This document shows positions 58,976 through 64,000 of a stretch of DNA of 64,000 nucleotides, in pieces. Source of the DNA: a virus (taxonomy: Duplodnaviria; Caudoviricetes); the IMG/VR virus record IMGVR_UViG_3300028591_000074, positions 160,001 through 224,000 of that record. One strand, 5' to 3'. The position numbers and the translations under genes are program-made. The first letter of the stretch is position 1. Each line of letters opens with the position of its first letter. Below the pieces are notes generated by a model. The model did not search any database and had not been told where the DNA came from. It saw only the letters and a list, made by a program, of their open reading frames with translations.

Positions 58976-59167
58976 TTATTCTGATTTAAGCACCTTAAAA
59001 TCCCAATAGGAATCTATAGGCTGTCTTGTGCATCTAAGTTCTTTTTCAACATAATCCGGTGGAAGAATTAAATCATCAAATACTCTTTCGGCATAACTTC
59101 TATTGTCAGTTACAAAGCATACCCATTCAAAATCATCTTGGGCGATAAATACGATAAAATAATTCAT
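58976..59167 (-). CDS. hypothetical protein
   Basis: 63-aa ORF in the operon. Confidence 0.45.
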   Translation of the reverse strand: MNYFIVFIAQDDFEWVCFVTDNRSYAERVFDDLILPPDYVEKELRCTRQPIDSYWDFKVLKSE

Positions 59168-59176
59168 AGTATATAC

Positions 59177-59401
59177 CTACTTTCTAAAATCATCTGGAGT
59201 AAATACAACGAAATTCCAGAAAAATTCAATGTAACCATCATCTAAAAGTTCGTCCATCTCCTCAAATGTTGCAAAAACAACTACTCTGCGTTTATCTTTG
59301 AGCATAACATCCCAAAATGTTCTGCCATCATCAAAATAAGGATATTCACTGTTACTTAAAGCAGCTTTGACTGGTTTTAATAGTTTCTTCACTTTAGACA
59401 C
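59177..59401 (-). CDS. hypothetical protein
   Basis: 74-aa ORF downstream of promoter motifs at 59411-59448. Confidence 0.5.
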   Translation of the reverse strand: MSKVKKLLKPVKAALSNSEYPYFDDGRTFWDVMLKDKRRVVVFATFEEMDELLDDGYIEFFWNFVVFTPDDFRK

Positions 59402-59456
59402 CTCTATATACTATAACGATTCACAAGCCTATATTACTATTAAAGGTTAAACTAAA

Positions 59457-59492
59457 AATAGAACTCAGCAGTTTAATTGTTGAGTTCTATTT
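59457..59492 (-). terminator. terminator closing the minigene array
   Basis: AAATAGAACTCAGCA...TGTTGAGTTCTATTT hairpin, T-run on the minus strand. Confidence 0.7.
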
Positions 59493-59649
59493 CTAATACA
59501 AAAGAATCTTTCTGTACAGTTGTAAGTGCATTTGCTACTCCATCAAAACTTGGTTCTAACCGTTGTTCGAGATAGATTCCAGGAGTACGGTCTGATGGAT
59601 TTTCTGGGTTTCTGCCACGCATAGCACATGAAAAATATAATTTAGTCAT
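59473..59649 (-). CDS. C5-MTase variable-region-like module 8 (58 aa)
   Basis: AMRGRNPENPSDRT...EQRLEP..DGVANALTTVQKDSFVLE. Confidence 0.7.
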   Translation of the reverse strand: MTKLYFSCAMRGRNPENPSDRTPGIYLEQRLEPSFDGVANALTTVQKDSFVLEIELNN

Positions 59650-59650
59650 C

Positions 59651-59776
59651 TCAATCACCAAAATAGATCACAAGAAAATCCATTCTACCAGAACGAAAAG
59701 CTGGTGCATAGTCATTATAGAATCTTGCGTTTCTGACCGTTGCATATGTATCATCAACTATCCACATCTGAATCAT
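59651..59776 (-). CDS. C5-MTase variable-region-like module 7 (41 aa, not in track)
   Basis: MIQMWIVDDTYATVRNARFYNDYAPAFRSGRMDFLVIYFGD; ATGA overlap with module 6. Confidence 0.6.
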   Translation of the reverse strand: MIQMWIVDDTYATVRNARFYNDYAPAFRSGRMDFLVIYFGD

Positions 59777-59967
59777 CTATCACAACCCCAACTATCATCT
59801 ACTTGTATCACAACCATTGGAACTCTGCCACCGCCTTGAGAAGTTGTCAATGATGGACAAAAATAAGCTGGATCCCAAACATTTCCGGCATACCCGGTTC
59901 CAAACTCTTCATTATATATATTAGCAAGTTTCCTTACATTGAATTCCAATACCTTTCCACCATTCAT
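59773..59967 (-). CDS. C5-MTase variable-region-like module 6
   Basis: LANIY...GYAGNVWDPAYFCPSLTTSQGGGRVPMVV; start at 59967 (ATG) or 59949 (TTG). Confidence 0.7.
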   Translation of the reverse strand: MNGGKVLEFNVRKLANIYNEEFGTGYAGNVWDPAYFCPSLTTSQGGGRVPMVVIQVDDSWGCDR

Positions 59968-60121
59968 ACACTGCAACATTTGCAAATCCATACCCATGTC
60001 CTGCACCACCATAAACAATAGCCGGAAATATTCCATCAGTATTGACAACAATACCTCCTTCGGAATTACCTGTGCTATAATTACATATTGTTATTATTCT
60101 GTTCGTATCTTGATTTATCAC
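59921..60121 (-). CDS. C5-MTase variable-region-like module 5
   Basis: IITICNY...EGGIVVNTDGIFPAIVYGGAGHGYG. Confidence 0.6.
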   Translation of the reverse strand: MINQDTNRIITICNYSTGNSEGGIVVNTDGIFPAIVYGGAGHGYGFANVAVYEWWKGIGIQCKETC

Positions 60122-60253
60122 AAATAAGTACCGCCGTTACAGTTCCATGATTTTCTTTGACACATGGCGCAACCCCCCCCCACCCACAGAAACAATTCTT
60201 GAAGCATCATGGTTGCTGAACATATAATTTCCTAAAATGATAATTTCATTCAT
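60081..60253 (-). pseudogene. module 4, frameshifted at a G9 tract (60173-60181)
   Basis: MNEIIILGNYMFSNHDASRIVSVG[G9]VAPCVKENHGTVTAVLI is in frame with G7 or G10. Confidence 0.7.
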
Positions 60254-60410
60254 CTTCACACCAAACTAATACAAATGGTTTATTCCCACCACCCTGCATG
60301 GTTAATATCGTAGGAGCTAAACCATTTGGATCATATAAATCTCCGCGTCCACCAGTAAAATTTGTAGGATTATTGTAAACGAACCCTAACCGAATTATAG
60401 AATCATTCAT
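60246..60410 (-). CDS. C5-MTase variable-region-like module 3 (54 aa, not in track)
   Basis: MNDSIIRLGFVYNNPTNFTGGRGDLYDPNGLAPTILTMQGGGNKPFVLVWCEDE. Confidence 0.75.
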   Translation of the reverse strand: MNDSIIRLGFVYNNPTNFTGGRGDLYDPNGLAPTILTMQGGGNKPFVLVWCEDE

Positions 60411-60566
60411 CTTCATCTCTTACCAAAATAAATAATTTTGCACCAGTTATAATTGTGGTCATCAATGAAGGGCAAATTCCTCCAGAATCATAGGTAGATC
60501 CATCATATCCGGCTTTACATTTACCGGATACCCCCCCCCTAAGAATATGATCTTAAAATTATCCAT
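60403..60566 (-). pseudogene. module 2, frameshifted at a G9 tract (60531-60539)
   Basis: MDNFKIIFL[G9]VSGKCKAGYDGSTYDSGGICPSLMTT... is in frame with G7 or G10. Confidence 0.7.
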
Positions 60567-60733
60567 CACTCACCACAACCCTTATCGGAGTTTTGAAATC
60601 TCTTGCACATAGACTTGGAGATACCACCCCCCCCCGATGAATAAATATAACACCATTGATGCATTTTTCCACTATCATTCTCCGGAAGAAGTAATCCAAC
60701 TGCCAATATTTCGTTTTGTTCAGATAATATCAT
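60559..60733 (-). pseudogene. module 1, frameshifted at a G9 tract (60627-60635)
   Basis: ...ILAVGLL...MHQWCYIYSS[G9]VVSPSLCARDFKTPIRVVV is in frame with G8 or G11. Confidence 0.7.
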
Positions 60734-60780
60734 TGAATCTTCTTTCTGTATTTTTCGTTCCGTACCATTACTTCATGAGC

Positions 60781-61326
60781 CTAAGATATGATTTTGTCAA
60801 TCTTTTCAAATGCAAAAATATAAGATTCGAACTTTTCTCCATTAACAAGAATTTGATCTCGCATAGGTTTGGTTTCTAATCCACCAAGCCTATCAGATAG
60901 TTTCTGTTCTTGTTTTTTCTTCTCCTTCTCAGAATGATCAGTTCTATGTGCCGTATGCGTAGCAATTCTAAGCGTGAAATCAAAATCAATGATAACTAAT
61001 CCATCTTTAGATTTAGCAAGCATTCCGAGATAATCAGAATAATAATCAGATTCATTCTTATAGTACACTTCCATCTTATAAAAGCGTTCAGCTAATTCAA
61101 CTATAGAATCTATAAAATTATGATACCGTTCGATTTCTTCTTCGGTGTATTCAGACTTAGGTTCACCCGAAATAACAGAACCATCCGGAACATTTACATC
61201 TTTATAAGTTGTTGCGGCAATATTAGTATCGGTATCCCCATCAAATTCAATATTAACAATAACATTTACATGTGTTGTTGTAGGTTCAGCATCTGTCGTT
61301 TCTTCAGTTTTAATATATCGTTTCAT
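60781..61326 (-). CDS. hypothetical protein with MKRYIKT tag
   Basis: MKRYIKTEE...NIAAT...FTLRIATH. Confidence 0.6.
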   Translation of the reverse strand: MKRYIKTEETTDAEPTTTHVNVIVNIEFDGDTDTNIAATTYKDVNVPDGSVISGEPKSEYTEEEIERYHNFIDSIVELAERFYKMEVYYKNESDYYSDYLGMLAKSKDGLVIIDFDFTLRIATHTAHRTDHSEKEKKKQEQKLSDRLGGLETKPMRDQILVNGEKFESYIFAFEKIDKIIS

Positions 61327-61328
61327 AA

Positions 61329-61529
61329 TCAAGATTCCTTCCTACTTTCATAAAATTCTATTGTCTTCAAGATGTACTTAGTAACGGACAGATTTTCAGA
61401 TTTTGCATATTCTTTAATCTGACATCTCATCCCTTTAGGAACATTTATAGCAACAGTATCATAATGCTGCTTATTGTATTCTGCCTGATATTTGATTTGA
61501 TCGAATGTCGAATTATCTTTATTTCCCAT
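61329..61529 (-). CDS. Arc/RHH-like DNA-binding protein (paralog of 52044-52247)
   Basis: FDQIKYQAEYNKQHYDTVAINVPKG...SVTKYI; TTGACA-17-TACTAT upstream. Confidence 0.7.
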   Translation of the reverse strand: MGNKDNSTFDQIKYQAEYNKQHYDTVAINVPKGMRCQIKEYAKSENLSVTKYILKTIEFYESRKES

Positions 61530-61602
61530 AAGTATATCCTCAACAATATAGTAACACATATACTAATATATGTCAATCGTAAATGTACTACATATAATTA
61601 AA

Positions 61603-63078
61603 GTGAACTCTCTCCCACCTGTAGAGGTGGGAGCTTCGTAAGAAGATTGGTATTTAAGTTTCCACCTAAAATCAGGCAACCCTTATTCTTACAGGCGTGT
61701 CCACTTCGCCACTACCGTATAGGGCTGTTAAGTCCACAACGCTACTTTTTCTTAAAATGTTCAATGCACCGTTGACATCTGCATTTAGTAATCTTCCGTC
61801 AGCAGTTCTGTACAGTCCTCTCCGTATGCGTGTTCCGCTGAATTTATAAGACTGCGGATTATCTGCATTGTATACAGGAATATTATCTCTGTCCCAGAAA
61901 GATGCCTGTGACGTATAGCTTTCTTCCTGTTCAACAAAAACAATGCCGTTCAGTTCACAAAGATATTCCAGTTTGGAACGCAGTTTACCATACGGAATAT
62001 TGACAAAATTCTGATTGCTACACTTGTTCATGTCAGAATTACGCTGAAATGTTTCATTATAGCCGATTACAAGCGTTCCAATATCGTGATCAATACAATA
62101 ATCAATGATTTTTCTTGCAGTTTTGCTCATATAGTCATTGACTTGTCTGTTCCTTTTATCAGCTAAGATTTTCTGACGGTTTGTTGTTCTTCTTTTATTA
62201 CCCTGTCTGTCTTTGATACCTTGCAGCCGTGCATTTTCTTTGTTAAACCATTGATTGACAGCTTTCAGTTTTCTGCCGTCAATAATGAAACTTCTGCCCT
62301 GATTTGATACAGCAGTTACAAGATTATTCACACCTAAATCCAAAGCAAGTGCATTGTTTTTGTTAAGATTTCTCTGAATACATTCAACTTCGTAAGTATA
62401 CTGAATTTCAAAGAACCTTGCTCTTGATTTTGGAATGATTCTGATTTCCTTGATATGCTTGTCAGCAAGTATCGGCGGCATTTTGATTTCGACAGGCTCA
62501 TGTGTTTTCCTAAATGTATTGGAATATGGAAGAATTAGTTTATTTCCGTTCAGCCTGACAAAACCTATCACAAGTGTTGTAAATCCATCTTTTGGCAGAT
62601 AATGTGGTAGTTTGCAGTCTCTGAAAGAATATTTTCCTTTTTTCGCAAGTTTCAAAAGTCCGAAAAAACTTTTGAACGAACCGTCTACTTCTTTCAGAAT
62701 CTGCTGTGCCATATTAGAATTCAAAGTTTTGTAATTAGGGCTGTCTTTCAGCAATGCGTAATTCTTTTCGTAGTTCAGATATTTTCCCTCTGTGAAGTAA
62801 TACTGACGGATATTGTAGATTGCTTCATTGGCAAGATTTTTTGCTGTATGACACAATTCTCTCAAAATGCTGTATTCTTCCTTTGACAGATGTTTCGCTT
62901 GTTGCTTTACCGTTAGATACATAGTTTCTTCTCCTTTCTTTAGATTTAGGATAATTCCTATGTATCTATTATAGTATATATTTTACTGAACGTCAATAGT
63001 TTCAGTAAAAAACAATCAGCATTCATCCACCACTTTCGCTTCTCTTAGAAGTGTGGGGTATTCTGCCGAGGATCTAAA
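61603..63078 (-). mobile_element. IS1341-type TnpB-only element
   Basis: left end TTTAT|TTTAGATCC...ACCCC hairpin; right-end CTCCCACCT hairpin ending TTCAC. Confidence 0.75.
61672..62922 (-). CDS. tnpB: TnpB RNA-guided nuclease
   Basis: ALDLGVNN, EESYTSQ, NADVNGALNI; RuvC-II region reads LVIGYN. Confidence 0.9.
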   Translation of the reverse strand: MYLTVKQQAKHLSKEEYSILRELCHTAKNLANEAIYNIRQYYFTEGKYLNYEKNYALLKDSPNYKTLNSNMAQQILKEVDGSFKSFFGLLKLAKKGKYSFRDCKLPHYLPKDGFTTLVIGFVRLNGNKLILPYSNTFRKTHEPVEIKMPPILADKHIKEIRIIPKSRARFFEIQYTYEVECIQRNLNKNNALALDLGVNNLVTAVSNQGRSFIIDGRKLKAVNQWFNKENARLQGIKDRQGNKRRTTNRQKILADKRNRQVNDYMSKTARKIIDYCIDHDIGTLVIGYNETFQRNSDMNKCSNQNFVNIPYGKLRSKLEYLCELNGIVFVEQEESYTSQASFWDRDNIPVYNADNPQSYKFSGTRIRRGLYRTADGRLLNADVNGALNILRKSSVVDLTALYGSGEVDTPVRIRVA

Positions 63079-63747
63079 ATAAAGCCATAGGTACGAAAGT
63101 TTTATTTAATCGTTCATTAGCTATCTTACACCATTCTGGATTTAATTCACAACCAAGATATTTTCTTCGAAGTTCTTTTGCACAAAGTAGATGTGATCCA
63201 GATCCTGCGCAAGGATCAAATATGATATCGCCTTCGTTAGAATTGTCGGATATTAACTCTTTCAACAAGTTGTGATTCTTTTCTGTAGGATGAACAGTAC
63301 TTGTTCCAGATGGGTAGTGAAGCACGGTATTCTTACAAAACGCATTAAATGTTGCACCAGACTTCTTAAACCAAACCGCGTTTTCGATTCCGGACAAATA
63401 GATAGTTTTGCCATTCATAGGGGATGGATTCGTTTTCTCCCACACGATCTGACGAACTGTTCCCAAAGAATCGGATTGCTTATCTGCAAAAAATGTATAT
63501 ATCGAAGAAAGTTGTCTTTGACCACAAAATATTATTATACATCCAGATGTTACACGGTAAACGGAATTCAAAAATTCTGATAAATCAAATGTAATTTCAT
63601 CGGCATAGGATTTGTCTAAATTTCGCAATCCACCAGATTTACGATTCACCTCAGCATATGGAATATCGGTTAGAGTTACATTAACCCCCCCCCCGTAGTC
63701 ATAGTTTTCATATAATCAATGCAATCCACATTTAGTATCGTATTCAT
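63074..63747 (-). pseudogene. N4/N6 DNA methyltransferase (beta class) frameshifted at a G10 tract (63685-63694)
   Basis: MNTILNVDCIDYMKTMTT[G10]VNVTLTDIPY (motif IV) ... HPTEK, IFDPCAGSGS (motif I); full length with G8 or G11, as sequenced it stops after 23 aa. Confidence 0.85.
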
Positions 63748-63892
63748 TACCACAATCTCCAATCAAAACAATCATAGGAATATATCCACCACCAGTACCC
63801 ATAGAAGATGTAAGGCAAGTGCAAATTCCATCTGTCTTTACGGATTGATGATCTTGCATCCCGCCTATAATTATATCAAGAAATGTCATCAT
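63716..63892 (-). CDS. C5-MTase variable-region-like module B (58 aa, not in track)
   Basis: IIIGGMQDHQSVKTDGICTCLTSSMGTGGGYIPMIV. Confidence 0.7.
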   Translation of the reverse strand: MMTFLDIIIGGMQDHQSVKTDGICTCLTSSMGTGGGYIPMIVLIGDCGNEYDTKCGLH

Positions 63893-64000
63893 TGATCACC
63901 AAAATCATAGGAACTTGACCACCACCTTCTCTGGCAGCGACCTGAATAGTAGGACTCAAGTAATCAGAATCATATATGATGCGACGTTGAGAACTGTTCG
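63876..64000 (-). CDS. C5-MTase variable-region-like module A (5' end outside the window)
   Basis: ...SQRRIIYDSDYLSPTIQVAAREGGGQVPMILV. Confidence 0.65.
   Translation of the reverse strand, partial: NSSQRRIIYDSDYLSPTIQVAAREGGGQVPMILVINDDIS

Follow-up and report, generated by a model that had tools for sequence, protein, structure and literature searches.

A candidate modular C5-cytosine methylase, encoded in pieces, in the methylation island of a large phage

Modified-DNA systems of bacteria and their viruses arrange specificity in several ways. HsdS, the specificity subunit of Type I systems, is a protein of ~400 amino acids (aa) with two target-recognition domains (TRDs) that serves a multimeric, cellular, N6-adenine enzyme. 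Campylobacter phages carry hypermutable poly-G tracts in receptor-binding genes, and these yield phenotypic diversity. The multispecific C5-cytosine methylases of Bacillus phages carry few TRDs. In the temperate-phage enzymes M.SPRI, M.Phi3TI, M.H2I and M.Rho11sI, one core bears several TRDs of ~40–60 aa, each directed at its own target, and functions against many restriction systems of the hosts (PMC12707154). Two-subunit C5 methylases are also known, as is complementation between fragments when the cut falls in the proximal part of the variable region (PMC3404938). Here we analyse a 64,000-base stretch (the window), bases 160001–224000 of the 253,527-bp virus record IMGVR_UViG_3300028591_000074, which is classed as complete, and the array of short TRD-like genes at its end. 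We consider it probable that this array belongs to a phage methylation island, whose distal part falls in the window and which encodes a multispecific C5 methylase in pieces that assemble in trans.

A preliminary description of the sequence had reported eight consecutive TRD-like open reading frames (ORFs) at 59473–60733 and two more at 63716–64000, the last running off the window edge, and both groups were recovered by ORF listing and three-frame translation. Three of the eight are, however, not intact, being interrupted by G9 runs at 60627–60635, 60531–60539 and 60173–60181, and the reported range of 41–66 aa fits the modules when intact or repaired, whereas the ORFs as listed span 35–92 aa. 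The array is real but about twice as long as had been described: eight further modules lie just past base 64000, together with both catalytic halves of a C5 methylase (G000:C1:224001–227747), giving a total of about 18 free-standing TRD modules, ten of them inside the window, and about 20 separate small genes when the two halves are included. The catalytic core expected beyond base 64000 is thus present but split into an N-half and a C-half, and the window itself contains no C5 catalytic motifs, as had been stated. All features of the island are on the minus strand, where their 5' to 3' order is N-half, eight modules, C-half, four modules, an N6/N4 methylase, TnpB, two genes and eight modules; the last two of the four modules after the C-half are the pair at 63716–64000. 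The modules of the window and the two halves are given below with pN/pS, the ratio of nonsynonymous to synonymous differences, computed by Nei-Gojobori counts with each module in its own frame; L004 and L005 are two closely related IMG/VR contigs.

59473–59649, minus strand: TRD minigene m24, last of the array; 58 aa, MTKLYFSC...ALTTVQKDSFVLE, 'TTVQKD' type; ORF and profile match; pN/pS 0.07 against L004.
59651–59776, minus strand: TRD minigene m23; 41 aa, short type, YAPAFRSG; ORF and alignment, scoring under the module-profile threshold; pN/pS 0.00 against L004 and 0.05 for L004 against L005.
59773–59967, minus strand: TRD minigene m21; ~64 aa from the ATG at 59967, in an open frame that runs up to 60051; FGTGYAGNVWDPAYFCPSLTTSQGGGRVPMVV; ORF and profile match; pN/pS 0.17.
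59921–60121, minus strand: TRD minigene m20; 66 aa, GTG start; ORF and profile match; pN/pS 0.19.
60081–60253, minus strand: TRD minigene m19, G9-broken and OFF as assembled; G7 or G10 would give an intact 56–57-aa ORF; pN/pS 0.00.
60246–60416, minus strand: TRD minigene m18; 56 aa, intact; LYDPNGLAPTILTMQGGGNKPFVLV; partner chain of the three-chain model below.
60403–60566, minus strand: TRD minigene m17, G9-broken and OFF as assembled; G7 or G10 would give an intact 53–54-aa ORF; pN/pS 0.08.
60559–60733, minus strand: TRD minigene m16, G9-broken and OFF as assembled; G8 or G11 would give an intact 57–58-aa ORF; pN/pS 0.30.
63716–63892, minus strand: TRD minigene m13; 58 aa, DGICTCLTSSMGTGGGYIPMIV; ORF and profile match; pN/pS 0.19.
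63876–64000, minus strand: TRD minigene m12; 51 aa, with its start outside the window at 64031; ORF and profile match; pN/pS 0.45.
G000:C1:224353–224736, minus strand: C-half, 127 aa, motifs IX and X; matches positions 269–323 of PF00145.
G000:C1:225804–227747, minus strand, outside the window: C5-methyltransferase N-half, 647 aa; PF00145, E 1.6e-36.

The N-half contains motifs I (FSGIGFQ), IV (FSFPC...TDIS), VI (MENV) and VIII (QNRKR). The C-half on its own reaches 19.4 bits on PF00145, slightly below the 22-bit cut-off, and its RKLTPEE and AGNG are kept across four lineages. Rather than forming one polypeptide, the N-half, the TRDs and the C-half are parted by stops and frame changes, in at least ten assemblies; rather than standing in frame and in tandem between motifs VIII and IX, as in enzymes of the M.SPRI type, every TRD has its own ORF. 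At least ten of the approximately 18 TRD modules lie after motif X. The placement of motifs I–VIII and IX–X on separate genes corresponds to the layout of M.AquI. An alternative genetic code is ruled out by the stop usage and the high coding density under code 11, since long ORFs terminate at each of the three stop codons and ~72% of the genome is covered by ORFs of at least 150 codons; recoding of this kind would be of no help anyway, because the modules occupy different frames.

What relates these short ORFs to TRDs? The loose shared pattern noted earlier, and the strong divergence around it, are both evident in an alignment of the modules, with pairwise identities of 20–37%. Each module is built from an M-N-x-x-I-I-x-L-G strand, a V-Y-x-x-x-G-I-x-P-T-L core, a G-G-x-x-P-x-I-V-V strand and an acidic tail, with the full pattern ending in G-G-x-x-P-x-I-V-V-x-E-D-E. 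A Pfam search with a single module gave no match, because one module is too short and too diverged. A profile (A1) was built from 20 modules. Its top matches among solved structures are all C5 methylases, led by the TRD of M.HhaI (residues 228–257, RLGIVGKGGQGERIYSTRGIAITLSAYGGG, including Thr250-Leu251), a weak match with an E value of 0.06. Among 1.84 billion representative proteins A1 had 2330 matches, the best with 4–8 tandem copies per chain in proteins of 250–1176 aa; the full-length matches that we inspected are C5 methylases, with the copies sitting between motifs VIII and IX. The TRD types within such fused enzymes are recognisably those of m19, m21 (in P0105, P0117 and P0126) and m24 (in P0126 and P0143). 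Relatives of the N-half at ~52% identity (P0097, P0105, P0110 and P0117) are likewise fused, in the order N-TRDs-C with one to four recognisable TRDs. On the evidence of these alignments and profiles, the homology of the modules to C5-methylase TRDs holds, as does the similarity to variable regions that the preliminary description had anticipated.

The junctions between modules carry overlapping stop and start codons, as described before, with overlaps of 8, 11, 14, 17... bases. Over eight loci, the next ORF is in the +1 frame at 55 of 60 junctions, in the +2 frame at five and in frame at none. Of 44 split modules, 29 have an ATG exactly at profile position 1 and 35 have one within a few codons of it, whereas none of 26 internal TRDs in fused proteins has a Met at its start. 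In the related contigs L008, L010 and L006, AAGGAG or GAGGA stands 6–9 nt 5' of the module ATG; in the phage studied here it is GGTGAT, 5 nt 5' of the ATG, a match to the 3'-terminal AUCACC of 16S rRNA. This evidence argues for separate initiation of the modules, each from its own ATG. The bias towards +1 is nevertheless not required by independent initiation, and it could point instead to programmed +1 frameshifting, or another form of recoding, that fuses N-half, TRDs and C-half into one or more long polypeptides; fused multi-TRD enzymes are common among the relatives, and the covalent form is therefore functional. We regard such fusion as unlikely. The junctions differ from one another (GAAGATGAATGA, TATGAATCAGAATGA, GCTTATGATGTTTCTTGA and others) and share no common slippery site. 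The stretch in which a shift could take place is only 2–5 codons at the 8–14-nt junctions, being this short because a +1-frame stop lies just 5' of the ATG, and the C-half would be reached only after eight consecutive shifts. The modules 3' of the C-half lie outside any canonical chain, and these ORFs are therefore unreadable into an N-TRD-C polypeptide. Each module, moreover, has an ATG, and in several lineages a canonical Shine-Dalgarno (SD) element stands at initiation distance from it, with at least ~20 nt to the 0-frame stop. If the modules are initiated separately, the regular +1 offset is best explained by a single ancestral junction with overlapping stop and start, from which all the others descend; the Asp codon of GAA-GAT-GAA-TGA, for example, provides the +1 ATG.

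The split layout is not peculiar to one genome. It occurs in seven other phage contigs with N-halves 53–98% identical to that of this phage, and none of these related phages has a single continuous ORF at this place, the frame-shifted mini-ORFs being retained. L004 and L005, in which the two halves are 85–98% identical to those of this phage, share its layout and lack the intein, TnpB and the N6 methylase; L004 has ~24 modules. In L006–L010 the N-half is 53–71% identical, and all five have an N-half, single-TRD ORFs, a C-half and more TRD ORFs. With the 300-aa N-half as query we found more than 80 clusters of N-half-only homologues of ~283–345 aa, on contigs of up to 367 kb. For the m19 type, 37 clusters of free-standing homologues of 42–65 aa were found, down to 63% identity. 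The nearest cellular relatives are from Clostridia; L011, L014, L016 and L018 are fused. The full split layout with at least eight TRD ORFs occurs in L012 (JAZQNA010000062.1), a 158-kb contig binned as Candidatus Absconditabacterales, which may be a phage contig mis-binned into a metagenome-assembled genome. Two cultured Lachnospiraceae genomes have the enzyme in fewer pieces: in Eubacterium ruminantium ATCC 17233 (L013:4890–6738, NZ_FUXA01000010.1) the locus reads N-half plus TRD, a free 56-aa TRD, and TRD plus C-half, with a close free-standing homologue of m16 at L013:6153–6323, and E. plexicaudatum ASF492 (L015) is also split. In the phage collection, megablast and blastn with the region and with the N-half DNA gave no match, tblastn with one 56-aa module gave nothing at 1e-3, and tblastn with the N-half found only relatives below 45% identity; no cultured phage of this clade was thus found there. 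As one element of the modular-enzyme interpretation, we lean towards the view that the split form of the C5 methylase is widespread in uncultured large phages of Clostridia.

Two side observations concern individual relatives. The C-half gene of L005 has an insert of ~270 bp between motifs IX and X (L005:7846–8114), which had only a sub-threshold chance match in Rfam and could be a small mobile element or intron. A 138-aa ORF 3' of the C-half in L007 (L007:9268–9681) consists of two TRDs and a C-terminal, zinc-ribbon-like CxxC...CxxC segment.

Comparison of the close genomes shows that modules are gained and lost exactly at junctions. This phage lacks m11, m14, m15 and m22 of L004, and m18 is unique to it in comparison with L004 and L005, having been inserted precisely at a junction. 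Whole modules that come and go in this manner, flanked by recurring junction sequences (TGAAGATGAATGA), are what one might see in a library of silent cassettes, untranslated in situ and recombined into an expression site in the way of pilS, vls or the hsdS shufflon. We find this very unlikely, as no expression site with a fused TRD stands beside the array in the 11 genomes examined; recombinase genes and inverted repeats were not seen either; the junction that closes the N-half is of the type found between modules; the modules are preceded by start codons and SD elements; and free-standing module ORFs as little as 63% identical keep their length of 42–65 aa.

The modules are under purifying selection in their own frames, in line with what had been predicted for them. 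Taken together, they have a pN/pS of 0.18 between this phage and L004 and of 0.17 between L004 and L005, compared with 1.2–1.7 in the two other frames; the corresponding values for the N-half and the C-half are 0.10 and 0.21. The genes were already split in the common ancestor of the three genomes, and this selection therefore acted on them in split form. These ratios bear on a further alternative, that the array is a multispecific methylase gene in decay or an artefact of assembly or sequencing, such as homopolymer errors. The three modules and the N6/N4 methylase that are out of frame at homopolymers would fit it, as would the fact that the records are all metagenome assemblies. One module past the window edge, m8, has an identical internal frameshift in all three close genomes, between parts that read RRGRAQG and PGSVCPALTCG, each with a pN/pS of ~0.1; in L005 the break falls at a C9 run. 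Its sites are as follows.

G000:C1:224741–224964: module m8 in this phage.
L004:7771–7996: module m8 in L004.
L005:7338–7563: module m8 in L005.

Decay or artefact is nonetheless largely refuted, and we consider it highly improbable, because the own-frame ratios of 0.17–0.18 stand against values above 1 in the other frames, the frame structure is repeated in at least ten independent assemblies that include a cultured isolate, most frame changes at junctions lie away from homopolymers, and the remaining genome is densely coding under the standard code.

How might a free TRD meet a split core? A complex of the L004 N-half, residues 38–127 of the C-half and the window module at 60249–60416 was folded in three runs. 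The interface score ipSAE (interaction prediction score from aligned errors) was 0.87 in all three, compared with 0.00 for the best of three controls; the runs share at least 80% of their contacts, and the partner has a predicted local distance difference test score (pLDDT) of 68. As proposed earlier for module and core, the module is predicted to dock between the two halves. In the model, module residues 27–40, the PTL loop, contact N-half residues 225–229 (QNRKR, motif VIII) and 257–294, module residues 46–55, its last strand, pair with C-half residues 47–53 (motif IX), and there are contacts at motif X as well; so placed, the modelled module takes the canonical TRD position. Single-chain homologues have been solved, and passing this test therefore speaks for compatibility, not for binding. 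It is also conceivable that the TRD peptides are made but act otherwise, for instance by modulating or competing with host C5 methylases or by tuning the split core, given that the modules are conserved small proteins and none is directly tied to a target sequence. This strikes us as distinctly unlikely: wherever the modules occur they are linked to both halves of a core, which jointly lack a TRD, a TRD-less core has no DNA-recognition part, and the predicted position of the module is that of the TRD in single-chain enzymes.

On balance we favour a modular, multi-subunit C5 methylase, in which a two-piece core works with any of ~20 specificity peptides of ~55 residues that are gained, lost and phase-switched gene by gene. 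We propose the following scheme. Each minigene of 41–66 codons would be translated from its own ATG, usually overlapping the end of the previous ORF. The N-half and C-half would associate in the manner of M.AquI, and one TRD peptide at a time would fill in the small domain by pairing its last beta-strand with the one that carries motif IX in the C-half, while the G-x-x-P-T-L loop of the peptide packs on the motif-VIII region of the N-half. Each core-plus-TRD complex would then methylate one target sequence, and phage DNA pre-methylated by the pool of TRDs would be guarded against numerous Type II restriction systems of the host. As the modules are separate genes, a single specificity can be gained, lost or silenced without loss of the enzyme. 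Our analysis shows the anatomy of the locus, the selection on it, its conservation, the start codons of the modules, their TRD homology and the placement of the homopolymers; translation into stable peptides, assembly in trans, specificity and actual switching are what we infer. As far as computation goes, the interpretation offered in the preliminary description, free-standing specificity modules acting in trans on a core, is the one best supported, and the checks named there turned out in its favour.

Several points weigh against this scheme. To our knowledge, biochemistry offers no precedent for a C5 methylase in three pieces of which one is a specificity peptide of 50 aa, and our literature search found no paper on free-standing TRD genes of C5 methylases. 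Split M.SssI, when broken in the distal variable region, complements poorly (PMC3404938). The interface score may reflect the model's memory of single-chain C5 methylases. Among solved complexes 58 of 80 reached its mark, and among mismatched pairs 2 of 110, but this calibration holds only roughly here because our own alignments were used. As to initiation, the profile behind the Met test was made from split modules, the SD-like element is weak (GGTGAT) in this phage and L004, the module ATG falls out of the GAT-GAx codons of the acidic tail, such that the ATG signal could in part be incidental, and common descent of the junctions is the only explanation for a uniform +1 offset under independent initiation. 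Finally, m8 is frameshifted in all three close genomes and the consensus has every one of the four homopolymer switches in the OFF state; it may simply be that some modules are dying.

The homopolymers themselves are confined to the island. In the 253,527 bases of the record, of ~36% G+C, there are exactly four G or C runs of nine or more, every other run being at most six, and these four are G9 in m16, m17 and m19 and G10 in the N6/N4 methylase.

60627–60635, minus strand: G9 homopolymer in m16, candidate phase switch T1.
60531–60539, minus strand: G9 homopolymer in m17, candidate phase switch T2.
60173–60181, minus strand: G9 homopolymer in m19 (C9 on the plus strand), candidate phase switch T3.
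63685–63694, minus strand: G10 homopolymer in the N6/N4 methylase, candidate phase switch T4.

By the frame test, each run is one base off an intact ORF and OFF in the consensus. The orthologues of m16 and m17 are intact in L004 and L005, where the T1 site reads GCTGGTGGATTGG and the T2 site is an interrupted GGGTGGAG; in these relatives both sites consist of interrupted glycine codons with no tract. T3 is G9 here, G8 in L004, in frame within an intact m19 orthologue, and G5TG3 in L005, out of frame. Judged by position and frame, the G9–G10 runs are most likely slipped-strand ON/OFF switches of individual specificities, and they bear the signature of contingency loci. The split layout would give such switches a rationale, in that a frameshift silences one specificity, whereas in a fused enzyme motifs IX–X, and with them every specificity, would be lost. 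The scheme also suggests bet-hedging over single methylation marks, with methyl-dependent Type IV restriction as one example of what might be evaded.

Other genes and elements are interspersed among the modules of the island.

60781–61559, minus strand: two unrelated genes between module blocks, of 76 aa (61329–61559) and 183 aa (60781–61332).
61672–62922, minus strand: TnpB (IS605 OrfB, Cas12f-like) insertion in the methylation island; Pfam PF01385 and PF07282.
63074–63747, minus strand: beta-class N6/N4 DNA methyltransferase; PF01555, E 8e-26; G10-broken after codon 17–20, with G8 or G11 giving 223–224 aa.

The start ATG of the N6/N4 methylase at 63747 overlaps the tail of m13 (63716–63762), and the gene occupies the slot of module m14 in L004; it seems that a module junction has here received a methylase of a different class. 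TnpB has no copy at the corresponding place in L004 and L005, and its region (61672–62996) holds a near-consensus promoter-like site, TTGACG-17-TATAAT. The 76-aa gene is kept in both relatives with a pN/pS of 0.01, and a promoter-like TTGACA-17-TACTAT lies by the two unrelated genes at 61576–61548. The terminator that had been described as closing the array was not borne out: a consensus scan found none after 59473, and folding of the 86 nt that follow gave no improvement on shuffled sequences (z = +0.83). An Rfam scan of 59000–64000 returned nothing. Within the N-half gene is an intein of ~345 aa of the Hint/LAGLIDADG kind (G000:C1 about 226300–227330, minus strand), whose insertion point coincides with the catalytic Cys of motif IV (FSFP/C...AN/CTDIS); many N-half homologues have Hint or intein Pfam matches.

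What would a modular enzyme of this kind mean? If the scheme is true, the C5 TRD is an autonomous specificity factor that acts in trans, and the plasticity of the family extends to a three-component enzyme. A combinatorial phage methylome, comparable to that produced by HsdS exchange, would then exist in a class of enzymes regarded as essentially monomeric, and the scheme would explain how a large phage accommodates ~20 anti-restriction specificities in ~6 kb. A natural three-part enzyme would also be a scaffold for programmable cytosine methylation, with a ready library of TRDs of ~55 residues. In many metagenomic phages, 'hypothetical proteins' of 50–60 aa next to 'truncated' dcm genes have probably been mis-read as pseudogenes. 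The three-gene locus of E. ruminantium (L013), from a cultured strain, makes the modular interpretation directly testable.

In comparison with the described systems, the locus has both shared and distinct features. Like the Bacillus phage enzymes, it encodes a phage C5 methylase with several short TRDs of the T-L type. Unlike in those enzymes, where the TRDs are in tandem within one polypeptide between motifs VIII and IX, each TRD here is an ORF of its own whose frame differs from that of its neighbour, two genes share the core between them, at least ten TRD genes lie 3' of motif X, and the modules number ~18–24. With M.AquI, M.EcoHK31I and the fragment-complemented M.SssI and M.BspRI it shares a split at or near the variable region into pieces bearing motifs I–VIII and IX–X (PMC3404938). 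In those known cases the pieces assemble non-covalently but the TRD is covalently part of one or both halves, whereas here, to judge from the model, it is a candidate third, exchangeable chain. The G runs, unlike those of the Campylobacter phages, are confined to DNA-methylation genes. As with Type I HsdS and phasevarions, specificity would be placed on a separate, exchangeable gene, and repeat tracts are predicted to switch specificities; unlike in those systems, the enzyme class is an unrelated one, and the candidate switches lie within the 55-aa TRD genes of a viral C5 enzyme.

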